NCBI RefSeq assembly: GCF_013122565.1
Contig: NZ_CP053258.1
Length of the DNA: 64,000 nucleotides
Reading direction: 5' to 3' (one strand)
Source: Escherichia coli
GTDB taxonomy: Bacteria; Pseudomonadota; Gammaproteobacteria; Enterobacterales; Enterobacteriaceae
Below, piece by piece: positions 1,087 through 18,440 of the stretch. The notes beneath the pieces are model-generated. The model ran no database searches and had not been told where the DNA came from. It saw nothing but the letters and a program-made list of their open reading frames with translations. Within the stretch, counting starts at the first letter, position 1. Each line of letters starts with the position of its first letter. The translations under genes and the position numbers were made by a program.

Positions 1087-1913
1087 CTCTCATCCTCCGG
1101 CAGCAGCGCGCGAAAGCGTTCCAGCGCCTGGCGGGCATAGAGTCTGGGCTCGTTCATATACATCGTCACCAGCTCCACCGTACAGTAACCCTCATAGCCC
1201 CGCTCAATAATATCGCGCATCAGTTCCCGCAGCGGCATTTTGCCTTCTCCAGGAATGTAATGCGTGTCGCTGGCCCCGTCGCTGTCGACAATATGCAGAT
1301 GACGTAATTTATCGCCCAGTTTGTCGAAATAACTCATCACCGGTTCCGCCTGAACATACGGCGCGCAAATGTCGACCATGCTGAACAGGCGCGGCGAAGG
1401 CACCAGCGCCAGCGCATGAAGCACATCATTAGCATTACACACGACGTTCGATTCATACGGCGTTAACGGTTCGAGGATTAGATCCATGCCGATGTTTTCC
1501 GCGTACTCACACAGTTCGCTTAGGTTCTCTGCCAGCCGTCCCCAGATAACATTAGGTGGCGTGAGATAGCCCGCATGGGCCGCGGAAATCAGCGTATAAC
1601 CCGCGTTCATCTCTTTTGCCATATCCATCGCCAGCTTGATCATGTCGAGGCTTTCGCGACGCATATGTTCATCGCCCAGCATCATGTTATACGGATAGCC
1701 GTTGGTTTCTGGCGTATAGCCGATAATCGGCATCTGATACGTCTGCGCCAGCGCCTTGATTTGTTTGATGCCGCCCGCTTTTAAGTCCGGCGCGAACGCG
1801 TGCGGGCGACCGCCCCAAATTTCGATGCCGTCGTAACCCAGCTCGCTTGCATCACGAAATGCGTGTTCAATAGGCAGCCGCTGGTGGCCGCAGGTAAACA
1901 TACCTGTTTTCAT
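1083..1913 (-). CDS. frlC: Fructoselysine 3-epimerase (TIM-barrel sugar-phosphate isomerase/epimerase family)
   Basis: ORF-track frame 1083..2000; start placed at internal ATG (MKTGMF, 276 aa) which has a GGAG Shine-Dalgarno and avoids a 38-nt overlap with frlB. Confidence 0.88.
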
Positions 1914-1962
1914 CGGGTAACTCCTTGCGTAAATCCGGCCCGTTGCCGGGCCGGGAGAGGGA

Positions 1963-2985
1963 TTAATATTCCACCAGACCACCGTAATAGCGGCGTTCAT
2001 CCGGGTTGTGATCTTTGTAAATAGACAGGTAGTAGCAGAGCCACTCCATTGGCACGAACATCAGGAACGGTGCCAGCCACGGGTGCAGCCCTTGCGAAAT
2101 TTCGGCGTAATCGATGACGATCACGTTGTCAGTACGCTGTTTAACAAAGTTAATGGCGCGTTCGGTGGTGTGGCGACTTTCATCATTGCCGAGCAGGAAC
2201 AGGAACGGAACGCCCGGTTCGACAATCTCCAGCGGGCCATGGCGGAACTCTCCGCTCTCAATCACGCAGCCGTGCGTCCAGGTAAATTCCATCAGCGTTA
2301 CAATGCCTTCTTTGTAACCCAGCGGACGCAGCGGACCCGCAGCAACGGTATAAATCATCGGCCACTGGCTGGCCAGTTCACCAAGCTGGCGGCCTTTTTC
2401 TTCCCAGGTGCGTACCAGATGACCGAGCGCATTCGGCAACTGCTTGAGATCGTTTTTGATCTTGCCGATTTCCGCGTTCGGCGCGAGGCGGGTGATCATC
2501 TCCAGCACCACGCTGTAGCAGAGCAGCAGGTGAATTTCCCAGATACAGTCGGCCTGATAATCAATGCTAAATTCCGCCGCCGAGGTAATCGGGCTGTCCG
2601 CGCGTTTGGTGAACGCCGCAGTGAGTGCGCCGCAGGCCCGGCCCAGCTCCAGCGCTTTGATTACCTCTTCCGTTTTACCGTAGTCAGAAACGCCAATCAC
2701 CGCGCAACGATCGTCGAGGCGATACGGGGTGTTATCGCAGAACTCCCAGCCGGAAATGGCGTAGACCTGAAGATCGGAAAAGCGATCCGCCAGATGTTTC
2801 GCCGTTTGCGCCGCGTTGAGTGGCGAGCCGCAGGCAACGAAATAAATACGATCAATGTCGCGCTTCACCATCTCTTCCACGATGGCGTGCACCAGCGGAA
2901 CGTCATGGCTGAGAACTTTTTCCACTTCCTGAACCATATTTTCGGTGACCAGAAAGTCCACGGTGCTTTTATCAATATCCAACAT
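1963..2985 (-). CDS. frlB: Fructoselysine-6-phosphate deglycase (SIS-domain protein)
   Basis: ORF-track frame 1963..3006; start placed at ATG 2985 (MLDIDKST, 340 aa) preceded by GGAG at about 8 nt; first ATG lacks an SD. Confidence 0.88.
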
Positions 2986-15299: not shown

Positions 15300-15322
15300 A
15301 TACGAAGCATCAGGCAAAAGAT

Positions 15323-15353
15323 GTCGGATGCGGCGTGAATGCCTTATCCGATG
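15323..15353. repeat. REP (repetitive extragenic palindromic) element
   Basis: gtcggatgcggcgtgaatgccttatccgat closely resembles the enterobacterial REP consensus; lies between convergent argD and yhfK. Confidence 0.7.
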
Positions 15354-15365
15354 GTTTAGCCTGCA

Positions 15366-17456
15366 TTACGCCTTCGAATCCCGCAACTTGCGACTCAGCC
15401 AAATCCCGTGATGCGGTCGCTGACGCCATGCCATCGACGAAATGGTGTGCATGGTGTTCAGATGACCAATAACCCGCTGTAAATGCTGCTCCAGCGTACC
15501 TGCCGCGCCTTCGTGCGGCTGCATCTCCGGCGCATCCATGATATTGGCATCGCCAGAACTCCCCGGTTCGTCATACTCCAGTCGCTGCTGACAACGCTGA
15601 ATGGCGATTTCACAAGACTGCAAATATTCTTGCGCCAGTTCAGGCGGCAATGCCCGGTGTTCCCGTGCCAGCGTGGTCATGGCATTAATATGTTCAACAA
15701 TAAACTGACTGTGCGTTACCCACAGTTTCATATCTGCCAGATAATGGCTGTTGAATGCCGGTTCCTGCATCGCTTGATTCAATGAGTTATACAGAGTGTT
15801 ATGCGCCTGATTTACCCGCATTCGCTGCCAGGCCAGTGGGGTAGGTTGCGGGTCCTCGCTCAGAATCAAGCGAATCGCTTCCTGATAGGCTTCTAAAGCA
15901 TCATGGGCGTTTTTACGCAATAACCCGCTCTGCCACTGCGGCCACAGCCAGACGGTACCACCGAAAGCAATCAAACAACCAATAATGGTATCGATAAGAC
16001 GTGGAAGGATGTACTGCTCACCGTTCAGCCACAACAGTTGCAGGGTATACACTGCGGTAATAGTAAAACCGACCGTCGCCCAGCCGTAGTTTTTGCGCAA
16101 TATCAGGTAGCTGGCGAGGGTGGTAATCAGCATCAAGGTCAGGGTGTAACCTTCGGGAATTTTAAAGTGCAGCGCCACGCCCGCAATGATTAACCCAACC
16201 ACGGTTCCCACGGAGCGATTCACAATCCTCAGACGGGTTGCGCCATAGCCATTTTGCGTCACCAGCAATACCGTCATCAGGATCCAGTACGACTTCGGCA
16301 GATGCAGCGCGGTACCCATCAGGCTGGCAACGCTTAACATCACACTGAGTCGTCCGGCATTGCGTAGCGCCGGAGACTTTAGTGACAGATAACTTTTCAG
16401 CGCCGGAAGTAACGGCATTCGCCGCTGTTTATCGGCCAGTAAGTCACGGGCATAGAGCGGTTTTTGGGTGCGCAGCACGCGGGCAATGCGGCTGAAATGC
16501 CAGTAGCAGAATTGCCCAACCGGATTATCCGGATGCTGGCGGGCGATTTTTTCCAGTGCGCCAATTTGCTTTTCCATCGTAAAACGCGTCGGCAGGCGAT
16601 GGTAAAGAATGTCATCAGCCAGCACGCGCAGGCGAGCGGCGACGGTTTGCGCATTCCAGCGGATAACTTCTTCCGCATGGCTACGCTCGACCAGTTTTTG
16701 CACCTCTTCCGGCTGATGCAAACTGACCGAAATATGTTCCTGCAAATCCAGCGCCTCCTGGAAAATACGCAGCATCCGCTTGTAGTCAGTATTATTTTGC
16801 GCGGAAAGCATATGCATTTGCTGATAGCACTGGGTAATTAGATCGACCGCTTTTTGCTGGCGCACCAGCAGCGGCGGCAGCGCTTTTTCAGGGTCGGTGT
16901 GCTGGGTAAGCAGGCTGTATTTGGCTTCACAATAATCTGCCAGTTCACGGTATAGCAGACTTAGTGACTCGCGCAGCGGTTGTTCGCGCCAGATCCAGAA
17001 CCAAAACCAGTTAAACAATCCGTACCAGAGAGTGCCCAACGCATAGATGAGCAACGGTTCCCAGACCGGCATGTATCCCGCCAGACTGAGGGTAAAAATG
17101 GCGGCGAGCAGCGATGCGGGAAGCAATTTAGCGTGCAATGGCCCCAGCTCAGCAGTGACGCCAAGTACCAGCGTTAATCCGGTCAGCAAAAAGGGCAGGG
17201 GAACATCTTTTGCCAGTAGTAGCTGTGTCAGCAAGCTACAGGTGGCAAACAGCGACGCACCAATGATTAAGCGTTTGAAAAAACGTTTATGAGGCGTATC
17301 AAGGCCCGCAATATTGCAACAGGCAGGAACGAGGGAGAAGAGCAGACCGAATCGTAATTCGCCAAGCATTAACCCAACGGCCACGGGCAAACATAGCACC
17401 AGCGTTTGTCGCAGTGCATAGTTGATATCGGGGTGATAAATCAGTCTGCGCCACAT
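15366..17456 (-). CDS. yhfK: Large inner-membrane protein YhfK, function unknown
   Basis: ORF-track frame 15366..17468 begins at TTG; first ATG (MWRRLIYHP) at 17456 gives 696 aa. Confidence 0.85.
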   Translation of the reverse strand: MWRRLIYHPDINYALRQTLVLCLPVAVGLMLGELRFGLLFSLVPACCNIAGLDTPHKRFFKRLIIGASLFATCSLLTQLLLAKDVPLPFLLTGLTLVLGVTAELGPLHAKLLPASLLAAIFTLSLAGYMPVWEPLLIYALGTLWYGLFNWFWFWIWREQPLRESLSLLYRELADYCEAKYSLLTQHTDPEKALPPLLVRQQKAVDLITQCYQQMHMLSAQNNTDYKRMLRIFQEALDLQEHISVSLHQPEEVQKLVERSHAEEVIRWNAQTVAARLRVLADDILYHRLPTRFTMEKQIGALEKIARQHPDNPVGQFCYWHFSRIARVLRTQKPLYARDLLADKQRRMPLLPALKSYLSLKSPALRNAGRLSVMLSVASLMGTALHLPKSYWILMTVLLVTQNGYGATRLRIVNRSVGTVVGLIIAGVALHFKIPEGYTLTLMLITTLASYLILRKNYGWATVGFTITAVYTLQLLWLNGEQYILPRLIDTIIGCLIAFGGTVWLWPQWQSGLLRKNAHDALEAYQEAIRLILSEDPQPTPLAWQRMRVNQAHNTLYNSLNQAMQEPAFNSHYLADMKLWVTHSQFIVEHINAMTTLAREHRALPPELAQEYLQSCEIAIQRCQQRLEYDEPGSSGDANIMDAPEMQPHEGAAGTLEQHLQRVIGHLNTMHTISSMAWRQRPHHGIWLSRKLRDSKA

Positions 17457-17494
17457 CGGGGGAAACAAAATGGCGCGCTACTCAGTAACGCGCC
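17455..17494 (-). terminator. Intrinsic terminator downstream of crp
   Basis: Hairpin ggcgcgcuacucaguaacgcgcc followed on the minus strand by auuuuguuuccc; overlaps the yhfK start codon. Confidence 0.75.
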
Positions 17495-17506
17495 ACTCCG
17501 ACGGGA

Positions 17507-18139
17507 TTAACGAGTGCCGTAAACGACGATGGTTTTACCGTGTGCGGAGATCAGGTTCTGATCTTCCAGCATCTTCAGAATGCGTCCCACGGTTTCACGA
17601 GAACAGCCGACAATCTGACCAATTTCCTGACGGGTAATTTTGATTTGCATACCGTCCGGGTGAGTCATAGCGTCTGGTTGTTTTGCCAGGTTCAGCAGAG
17701 TCTGTGCAATACGGCCCGTCACGTCGAGGAACGCCAGGTTGCCCACTTTCTCTGAAGTGACTTGCAGACGACGCGCCATCTGTGCAGACAGACGCATCAG
17801 AATGTCCGGATTTACCTGAATCAATTGGCGAAATTTTTTGTACGAAATTTCAGCCACTTCACAGGCGGTTTTCGCACGTACCCATGCGCTACGTTCCTGG
17901 CCCTCTTCAAACAGGCCCAGTTCGCCAATAAAATCACCCTGATTCAGATAGGAGAGGATCATTTCTTTACCCTCCTCGTCTTTGATCAGCACTGCCACAG
18001 AGCCTTTAACGATGTAGTACAGCGTTTCCGCTTTTTCACCCTGGTGAATAAGCGTGCTCTTGGATGGGTACTTATGAATGTGGCAATGAGACAAGAACCA
18101 TTCGAGAGTCGGGTCTGTTTGCGGTTTGCCAAGCACCAT
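17507..18139 (-). CDS. crp: cAMP receptor protein (global transcriptional regulator)
   Basis: 210-aa ORF-track protein with cNMP-binding domain and C-terminal HTH. Confidence 0.98.
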
Positions 18140-18440
18140 GCGCGGTTATCCTCTGTTATAAGCTTTCTCCAGAGCCAGATAACGCCGCTGTCTCTGGATT
18201 GCCGAAATATGCTTCCCGCTACCTGGGAAGGGGCTATCAACTGTACTGCACGGTAATGTGACGTCCTTTGCATACATGCAGTACATCAATGTATTACTGT
18301 AGCATCCTGACTGTTTTAGCATAGCTTTCGCTTTGTGTCTCCTGGTGTCTCGCTTCAGCATGACCCAGGTCGCCTTCCGTTGCGCGATTTGGTTAGTACG
18401 CGTACTCTGTCAGGAAAATTGACGCAGTGGAGTAGCAAAA

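Follow-up and report, generated by a model that had tools for sequence, protein, structure and literature searches.

Among the internal partial terminators of Escherichia coli operons are T1, between rpsU and dnaG in the rpsU-dnaG-rpoD operon, and the attenuator between rplL and rpoB. A different type of linkage between adjacent genes, translational coupling through ribosome unfolding of a sequestered start, is known from the coat-replicase pair of RNA phage MS2 and from several E. coli operons. The junction between crp and yhfK shares with the first two systems an intrinsic terminator located between co-directional genes, such that the downstream gene is expressed at a reduced level via read-through, and resembles dnaG also in the weak translation signals of the downstream gene. 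Unlike in these systems, the yhfK start lies only 15 nt from the hairpin, and the pair consists of a global regulator upstream and an uncharacterized transporter downstream. The likeness to MS2 is that the downstream start is predicted to pair with a segment inside the footprint of the ribosomes that end the upstream ORF, but the clamp formed by this pairing is predicted in a single clade, without support from covariation. We know of no dedicated antitermination factor for crp-yhfK.

The same terminator was included, along with those of sgrS-setA and ryhB, in the work of Morita 2015 (PMC4509938), where a plasmid-borne crpT-rplLT hybrid showed frequent read-through of the crp terminator and enhanced termination under stress; yhfK as the beneficiary of this read-through was not found in the text of that paper. 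Yan 2018 (PMC6131387) and Adams 2021 (PMC7815308) record the 3' end, read-through counts, operon extension and Rho sensitivity for this junction in supplementary tables and one sentence, whereas the position of the start, the missing Shine-Dalgarno (SD) sequence, the conservation and the clamp are not analyzed there. A leaky crp terminator feeding yhfK is an ordinary operon design that is already documented at this locus; what is added here is the conservation across the family, the missing SD, the clade-limited predicted clamp and a search that found no credible internal promoter. We consider it highly likely that crp and yhfK constitute one conserved transcription unit divided by a leaky intrinsic terminator.

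The terminator between crp and yhfK

The window, that is, the entire 64,000-nt stretch of E. coli DNA that was analyzed, carries both genes on the minus strand (Table 1). The crp-yhfK spacer is 50 nt long and is filled by the terminator and a 14-nt pyrimidine-rich leader, the order on the minus strand after the hairpin being A-UUUUGUUU-CCCCCG-AUG. The yhfK frame opens after TAG 17480-17478. Its first in-frame ATG is the AUG at 17456..17454, as the first-pass annotation had it, and translation from there gives 696 aa (17456..15369, not counting the stop); the G/C core of the hairpin that it placed at the end of crp matches the sequence exactly.

Table 1. Features of the crp-yhfK junction, in window coordinates
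Feature	Position	Strand	Basis and remarks
Main crp TSS, approximate (K-12 3485952), origin of crp and crp-yhfK transcripts	18307	minus	SMRT-Cappable-seq; offset from K-12 alignment
crp CDS (210 aa)	17507..18139	minus	Stop TAA 17509-17507; ORF list; crp annotation in 5425/5426 E. coli genomes and in K-12
Predicted clamp 5' arm, CCCGUCGG	17498..17505	minus	1-9 nt past crp stop; MFE fold
crp intrinsic terminator hairpin, 11-bp stem UGGCGCGUUAC/GUAGCGCGCCA, 3-nt loop UGA	17471..17495	minus	G/C core 17472..17494; sequence, fold, covariation
Terminator U-tract, UUUUGUUU	17463..17470	minus	Dominant RNA 3' end at 17465 (K-12 3486794)
In-frame TTG within U-tract	17466..17468	minus	Start in K-12 RefSeq (700 aa); probably not the real start
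Pyrimidine-rich leader, CCCCCG	17457..17462	minus	Without Shine-Dalgarno
Predicted clamp 3' arm, CCGAUG-U-GG, contains yhfK AUG	17451..17459	minus	P(unpaired) of AUG 0.00-0.01 in Escherichia
yhfK start ATG, conserved, 696 aa	17454..17456	minus	PGAP annotation; N-terminus conservation; TIGR01667 profile from residue 12
yhfK CDS, YccS/YhfK family putative transporter	15366..17456	minus	ORF and PF12805, PF13515, TIGR01667 matches
C-rich, G-poor stretch early in yhfK, candidate Rho loading site	17282..17359	minus	C/G 1.53, 14 YC dimers (composition scan)
Rho-dependent termination region peak (K-12 3487001)	17258	minus	Adams 2021 Supplementary file 2; mapped by offset

That the crp terminator is more than a chance fold follows from its folding z-score, its presence in all sequences, covariation and experimentally determined 3' ends. 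For the 71-nt terminator region, the folding energy is -29.1 kcal/mol (z = -4.1 relative to shuffled sequences); the hairpin including the A-U/G-U extension has -21 kcal/mol, and a hairpin followed by a U-tract was found in 81/81 sequences examined. RNAalifold analysis of 72 distinct spacers yields 13 consensus pairs, with compensatory changes in 10, and in the alignment with K-12 the hairpin differs in the loop only. Termination at this site has been demonstrated experimentally: the dominant crp 3' end in Term-seq is K-12 3486794, with an intrinsic terminator score of 8.1 (Adams 2021, PMC7815308), and the crp transcript ends at 3486794/3486793 in SMRT-Cappable-seq (Yan 2018, PMC6131387). The closing U-A pair is 6 nt upstream of this 3' end, as expected of an intrinsic terminator. 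The crp terminator was absent from the output of a consensus promoter and terminator scan of the window and K-12, likely because the G-U/A-U extension of the stem uses up the U-tract. By sequence and fold, the spacer shows no alternative antiterminator structure, leader peptide or element for binding a ligand or protein, as a regulated attenuator or riboswitch would have, the hairpin being accompanied by a single other pairing, the clamp, which in the fold stabilizes the hairpin and does not compete with it. The crp terminator is, then, a real, conserved, leaky intra-operonic terminator of a known kind.

The arrangement is conserved throughout the family. In 80/80 Enterobacteriaceae species, crp is located directly upstream of yhfK with a terminator between the two genes; the spacer is 45-66 nt long in 75 of the 80, and the extended stem starts 5-10 nt past the crp stop codon in all species. 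The same layout is found for yhfK orthologs at 57% and 40% identity. The two relatives at 28-32% identity provide no usable synteny evidence: one (L086) is not adjacent to crp, and the other (L085) is on a 2-kb contig with that gene alone.

Read-through as the probable source of yhfK transcripts

To our knowledge, the SMRT-Cappable-seq protocol includes size selection. In the M9 dataset of Yan 2018 (PMC6131387), TSS 3485952 is represented by 475 reads: 250 have their end at the terminator, 46 have it within 50 bp, and 121 continue past the terminator. This amounts to 29% read-through (121/417), the median extension being 122 nt, although size selection, if present, favors longer RNAs so that this figure and those for rich medium would be overestimates. 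The corresponding read counts for the second crp start are 48/20/13/7. The row for rich medium gives 251/71/17/147 and a median of 784 nt, and is interpretable only with two columns swapped; read-through is probably higher in this medium than in M9.

The published long reads that begin at the upstream promoter include some that span both genes, as expected of a leaky operon. Each of the RegulonDB operons b3357 and b3358 is lengthened to b3357|b3358, and the number of transcriptional contexts observed in both media is 1/1 for yhfK and 2/2 for crp (Yan 2018, PMC6131387), so that a single context for yhfK is an experimental observation. Adams 2021 (PMC7815308) handled crp-yhfK as a single unit cloned from the crp TSS, and the forward primer of their construct starts at 18306. 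The earlier proposal that yhfK depends on terminator read-through is supported by the 121 passing reads, the operon extension and the single context, and full termination without a yhfK transcript, one of the two outcomes that the first-pass annotation had named as its refutation, is not what the reads that cover crp-yhfK reveal.

The same reads speak against the extremely improbable reading that the terminator is effectively complete and that yhfK is a silent or decaying gene in E. coli. The strength of the terminator with its A-U/G-U extension, the lack of an SD and a median read-through extension of just 122 nt in M9 would all fit such a gene, but the YhfK protein is detectable by proteomics in published work, and the 696-aa ORF is uninterrupted, with a conserved N-terminus and identities of 77-99% in 80 species. 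Both the full-length yhfK mRNA and the protein have already been reported from the wild type. By its profile matches (TIGR01667, 926.5 bits against a curated cut-off of 467.8; PF12805, 240 bits; PF13515, 78 bits), the product is a putative transporter of the YccS/YhfK family (TIGR01667; Pfam FUSC-like). The papers examined that mention yhfK provide no insight into its function.

It had also been claimed that yhfK has no room for its own promoter after crp, and this agrees with a 50-nt spacer entirely occupied by terminator and leader, in which a motif scan detected no sigma-70-like site. An alternative that we regard as markedly unlikely is that yhfK has its own promoter toward the 3' end of the crp reading frame, with read-through from crp being incidental. 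Separate RegulonDB operons for crp and yhfK, implied by Supplementary Data 3 of Yan 2018 (PMC6131387), would agree with such a promoter, as would the -10-like hexamer CAAAAT at 17642..17637, the only one in the final 300 nt of crp, which is present in 75/79 species. The hexamer, however, matches at 4/6 positions, with a -35 of 3/6, and its conservation is accounted for by the Ile-Lys-Ile codons in which it sits; synonymous sites at the crp 3' end show no marked constraint (variation of 0.65-0.96 against a mean of 0.80). Motif scans are insensitive, having missed also the known crp promoters both in the window and in K-12, and given that the crp terminator was missed as well, we attach little weight to their negative results. 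Also against a buried promoter, capped full-length reads assign yhfK one transcriptional context in both media, and such a transcript would still have to cross the terminator. The view that yhfK has no independent TSS is supported by one long-read dataset together with weak motif evidence.

The yhfK start, the predicted clamp and Rho

The yhfK ATG lies 6 nt beyond the U-tract, 9 nt beyond the mapped RNA 3' end and 15 nt after the hairpin. The first-pass annotation had placed the yhfK start inside the U-tract, which does not hold for the ATG and applies solely to the TTG that is annotated in K-12, the only one of the two annotated starts to fall there. The K-12 RefSeq start is probably wrong, judging from comparison of the orthologous loci: the N-terminus MWRRLIYHP(E/D) starts at the ATG in 82/83 of them, 28/83 lack any in-frame start codon ahead of the ATG, and the TTG, a by-product of UUUUUG, varies in position from 2 to 14 codons upstream. 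That the true start is elsewhere, at the U-tract TTG or at a downstream codon, and that the juxtaposition is hence an annotation artefact, is very improbable: the 700-aa K-12 RefSeq annotation speaks for it, but the conservation of MWRRLIYHP from the ATG on, the loci devoid of an upstream start and the drift of the TTG with UUUUUG speak against it, and either codon would still adjoin the terminator.

No Shine-Dalgarno sequence was found upstream of yhfK: the anti-SD duplex of positions -20..-1 has +0.9 to +1.5 kcal/mol in nearly all leaders, compared with -5.8 kcal/mol for crp, and the median purine fraction of the leaders is 0.25. A split ribosome-binding site, in which a GGAG 5' of the hairpin would be folded near the AUG, was rejected because the GGAG is not conserved (AGAA in Salmonella, GAAA in Citrobacter, CAAA in Enterobacter). 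A leaderless yhfK mRNA was also discarded, the -12..-7 hexamer (TTGTTT) matching TATAAT at 2/6 positions only.

In the Escherichia/Salmonella/Citrobacter clade, folding predicts that a clamp between the bases following the crp stop and the start region sequesters the yhfK AUG. This pairing is predicted in 20/24 spacers of the Escherichia/Salmonella/Citrobacter/Intestinirhabdus group and is absent in the other 48; across the 24 clade sequences, 91% of the clamp cells are paired, with one compensatory cell only. In the folds of Enterobacter, Klebsiella and Kosakonia, there is no clamp and the AUG is unpaired.

An effect of Rho on this transcript has been demonstrated experimentally by Adams 2021 (PMC7815308), who report a Rho-dependent termination region in yhfK, about 200 nt into the gene (score 3.06, p 4.9e-32), and a 1.6-1.8-fold increase of a crp-yhfK lacZ fusion in rhoR66S, an effect classified as 'intermediate'. 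The crp 3' end is also flagged within a Rho termination region in that study (Rho score 2.36), the effect more likely acting downstream, at about +200 in yhfK. C-rich windows like the one at 17282..17359 are not rare in yhfK, and its role in Rho loading is putative. The suggestion that yhfK expression is very low is partly sustained, by the early ending of read-through transcripts in M9, the Rho region and the missing SD, while the detectability of the protein limits it.

Expression of yhfK and its consequences

In the model that we favor, transcripts begin at the crp promoters. Most of them stop at the terminator, their RNA 3' end lying at 17465, and the substantial minority of polymerases that pass it are the only source of yhfK mRNA that has been detected. 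Initiation at the yhfK AUG, located 15 nt past the hairpin behind an SD-less, pyrimidine-rich leader and, in the E. coli clade, under the predicted clamp, would be poor, as expected from the missing SD and the predicted pairing of the AUG with the bases after the crp stop. The weakly translated 5' part of yhfK, we infer, would expose the RNA to Rho, such that many read-through transcripts would end within ~100-200 nt. On balance, little YhfK would be made, and its level would depend on how active the crp promoters are and on the conditions that alter terminator efficiency.

A rival reading, which we consider unlikely, is control by ribosomes: those ending crp translation, 1-12 nt from the hairpin, could lower termination under tight coupling of translation to transcription and/or melt the clamp and thereby permit initiation at yhfK, so that yhfK would be translationally coupled to crp. 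The placement of the extended stem 5-10 nt after the crp stop in all species, the clamp 5' arm immediately past the stop with the AUG predicted to be fully paired in Escherichia, and an SD-less start are compatible with such coupling, as is read-through that is reduced by stress and, compared with M9, apparently greater in rich medium. Against it, the clamp is predicted in one clade only, with one compensatory cell, re-initiation would have to bridge a long gap of 50 nt, the core hairpin by our estimate still fits when a ribosome occupies the stop, and the authors of the stress effect suggested that it applies to intrinsic terminators in general (Morita 2015, PMC4509938). In its full form, the packing of the crp stop, terminator and SD-less yhfK start would be a ribosome-sensing device, in which the terminating ribosome sets read-through and, in the E. 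coli clade, opens the clamp; we deem this quite unlikely. If it were true, YhfK output would report the transcription-translation coupling of the crp mRNA and not merely crp promoter activity.

With crp and yhfK viewed as a single unit divided by a leaky terminator, the value of these observations is mainly practical, and the locus raises no new biological question. The dependence of yhfK expression on crp transcription and on terminator efficiency implies that crp deletion and cassette alleles, which are widely used, can change or abolish yhfK expression. In a Salmonella study, the yhfK signal was lost once a crp deletion had been transferred, though the authors could not rule out altered primer sites as the cause. 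Reports of CRP-regulated yhfK may simply reflect the regulation of the crp promoter, and phenotypes ascribed to CRP could include a small YhfK component.

The crp-yhfK junction and its terminator

The window is Escherichia coli DNA. A 401-nt query spanning the crp/yhfK junction, run against 5426 complete Escherichia coli genomes, is matched in 5425 of them at 97-99.8% identity, with crp followed by yhfK annotated in every match. The spacer differs from that of K-12 solely in the three loop bases of the hairpin (CUG in K-12, UGA in the window), the stem being identical, and the terminator region has a folding energy of -29.1 kcal/mol (z = -4.1). The first-pass annotation had placed the yhfK start within the crp terminator U-tract; its coordinates and sequence string are correct when read on the minus strand and the juxtaposition stands, but the ATG lies 6 nt past the U-tract rather than inside it.

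Features of the junction between crp and yhfK, and of inserts at compared loci (L-numbers)
Feature	Position	Strand	Details
crp	18139..17507	minus	stop TAA 17509-17507
crp-yhfK spacer		minus	50 nt; UCCCGUCGGAG, then hairpin
Terminator hairpin	17495..17471	minus	11-bp stem, 3-nt loop: UGGCGCGUUAC-UGA-GUAGCGCGCCA
Hairpin loop, site of window/K-12 difference	17481..17485	minus
U-tract	17470..17463	minus	UUUUGUUU, directly 3' of hairpin
CCCCCG		minus	between U-tract and yhfK AUG
yhfK AUG	17456..17454	minus
~130-nt repeat insert, L069	about 1361-1500
~130-nt repeat insert, L073	about 1354-1500
~130-nt repeat insert, L076	about 1355-1500
Shorter inserts, crp terminator to yhfK, L078 and L079

Adams et al. 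2021 (PMC7815308) found the dominant Term-seq 3' end of crp at K-12 position 3486794 in three conditions. They count it as primary for crp and also as "internal" to yhfK, whose TTG-annotated ORF it enters by 3 nt; its intrinsic terminator score is 8.1, values >3 suggesting intrinsic termination. By coordinate mapping, it corresponds to window 17465. Transcript ends at 3486794/3486793 were found independently by Yan et al. 2018 (PMC6131387). A simple consensus scan for terminators and promoters (window 17400..17560; 1300..2600 of the compared locus L001) missed both the mapped crp terminator, likely because a G-U/A-U stem extension consumes the U-tract, and the known crp promoters, so that its negatives at the crp-yhfK locus are uninformative. 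At the other end of crp, Term-seq placed an "orphan" 3' end at K-12 3486117 in two conditions (Adams 2021, PMC7815308); this site, at window about 18142, precedes the crp start codon by 3 nt, and the crp 5' UTR may be processed there or its transcription terminated prematurely.

Transcription of yhfK by read-through

The claim that yhfK has no room for its own promoter after crp holds: the 50-nt spacer leaves no such room, and a motif scan found no promoter-like site in it. Within the final 300 nt of crp there is a single weak -10-like hexamer, CAAAAT at 17642 (4/6 match, -35 3/6), the conservation of which is explained by the Ile-Lys-Ile codons, and the codons at the 3' end of crp are about as variable (0.65-0.96) as those of the gene on average (0.80). 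Separately, crp codons 1-40 (18139..18020) have a far lower codon variability, 0.09-0.4 versus a mean of 0.80 elsewhere in crp (77 Enterobacteriaceae), and overlap the antisense RNA AsCRP annotated in K-12, which suggests constraint by an overlapping regulatory region or antisense transcript.

Dependence of yhfK on read-through, also proposed in the first-pass annotation, is supported by published capped full-length reads. In M9, of 475 reads from the crp start at 3485952, 250 stop at the terminator, 46 stop within 50 bp and 121 pass, which by the authors' formula amounts to 29% read-through; the median extension is 122 nt (PMC6131387). The rich-medium crp row reads 251/71/17/147, median 784 nt (Yan et al. 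2018 Supplementary Data 1, Rich_TTS, PMC6131387). This row and a neighbouring one are consistent only with the "passing-through" and "within 50 bp" columns being swapped relative to the M9 sheet; given that the row is sensible only with 147 as the pass-through count, the columns apparently are swapped, in which case, on our reading, read-through in rich medium is about 60%. The SMRT-Cappable-seq protocol has a size-selection step, which would favour long RNAs, so that the read-through fractions are probably overestimated. The RegulonDB operons b3357 (crp) and b3358 (yhfK) are each given as extended to b3357|b3358, with one transcriptional context per medium for yhfK and two for crp (PMC6131387). 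Furthermore, "crp-yhfK" has been cloned from the crp transcription start as one 5'UTR+ORF unit (Adams et al., PMC7815308), and read-through at the crp terminator was observed in a crpT-rplLT hybrid, the terminator stopping transcription more strongly under glucose-phosphate or iron stress (Morita et al. 2015, PMC4509938).

The yhfK start codon, initiation and Rho

A TAG at 17480-17478 within the hairpin closes the yhfK frame upstream, leaving TTG 17468, inside the U-tract, and ATG 17456 as candidate starts, and the annotations conflict accordingly: TTG 17466..17468 in K-12 RefSeq (700 aa, NP_417817.2) versus ATG 17454..17456 in PGAP (696 aa). The ATG opens the peptide MWRRLIYHP(E/D) in 82 of 83 loci, and 28 of the 83 lack any in-frame start 5' of it; the upstream TTG, where present, lies 2 to 14 codons away, a shifting distance expected of a UUUUUG by-product; and the TIGR01667 profile match begins at YhfK residue 12. 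Taken together, these comparisons argue that the true start is the ATG and that the TTG start in the K-12 annotation is probably wrong.

In nearly every species, positions -20..-1 of yhfK form no favourable anti-SD duplex (+0.9 to +1.5 versus -5.8 kcal/mol for crp), and the last 12 nt before the start are about 75% pyrimidine. In the minimum-energy fold, a stretch 1-9 nt past the crp stop, CCCRUCG(G), pairs with (C)CGAUG-U-GG, extending the terminator stem into a clamp that buries the AUG. This clamp is predicted in 20 of 24 spacers (Escherichia, Salmonella, most Citrobacter, Intestinirhabdus), with a predicted AUG P(unpaired) of 0.00-0.01 in Escherichia; in the remaining 48 spacers it is not predicted and the AUG is open. 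Its compensatory support is confined to one cell, and the putative clamp is a lead, not a finding.

The crp 3' end has a Rho score of 2.36, a Rho termination region peaks at K-12 3487001 (p 4.9e-32), and rhoR66S raises a crp-yhfK fusion 1.6-1.8-fold (Adams et al., PMC7815308). The peak corresponds to about 17258 in the window, some 200 nt inside yhfK and just 3' of a C-rich, G-poor patch (17359..17282). An early stop by Rho is in keeping with the short median extension of read-through RNAs in M9. In UPEC, YhfK protein has nevertheless been detected in MOPS medium, and it is strongly lower in urine and inside bladder cells.

Conservation and design of the crp-yhfK unit

A one-genome-per-species scan yielded 80 Enterobacteriaceae loci (YhfK 77-99% identity), in all of which crp, ending in VVYGTR and the stop, is immediately 5' of yhfK. 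The spacer is 45-66 nt long in 75 loci, 90-94 nt in two and 187-195 nt in three, and in every spacer a strong hairpin (-11 to -31 kcal/mol) precedes a U-rich tract; RNAalifold on the 72 distinct spacers predicts 13 pairs, 10 with compensatory changes. The order of crp, terminator and yhfK extends to orthologues of 57% (L083) and 40% identity (L084, with yheT-yheU-prkB-crp-yhfK synteny); at the inspected locus of a 28%-identity relative, crp is not adjacent. In Cedecea/Buttiauxella, a ~130-nt dispersed intergenic repeat that looks like ERIC lies between the crp terminator and yhfK, extending the spacer to 187-195 nt and placing purine-rich SD-like bases before the ATG; it has about 4 unannotated intergenic matches (83% identity) in each E. 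coli genome. The convergent yhfK-argD spacer (window 15300..15365) folds into a strong palindrome (GGAUAAGGCAUUCACGCCGCAUCC; -30.2 kcal/mol, z -3.2), which we take to resemble a REP element.

Most likely, crp and yhfK form one unit split by a leaky intrinsic terminator, and yhfK mRNA is produced by read-through; weak SD-less initiation would expose the early ORF to Rho, so that few crp transcripts would continue into a complete yhfK mRNA. Published experiments demonstrate the transcription steps; we infer that poor translation causes the Rho action, and the clamp, or ribosomes ending crp translation, may play a part. An internal partial terminator is a classic design for unequal expression within an operon, and in this the locus resembles rpsU-dnaG-rpoD T1 and the rplL-rpoB attenuator, which we take to be systems of the same design.

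For this locus, the literature already records, scattered in supplements, the terminator and its leaky behaviour, the joint crp-yhfK transcript and the Rho sensitivity. The original observation is confirmed and its interpretation supported, for a feature that was already known. The family-wide conservation, the consistent SD absence, the case for the ATG start against the TTG and the predicted clade-specific clamp are additions that leave the category unchanged. In practice, crp alleles can exert polarity on yhfK. A Salmonella crp-deletion transductant had lost yhfK expression, the authors being unable to exclude a primer-site sequence change.
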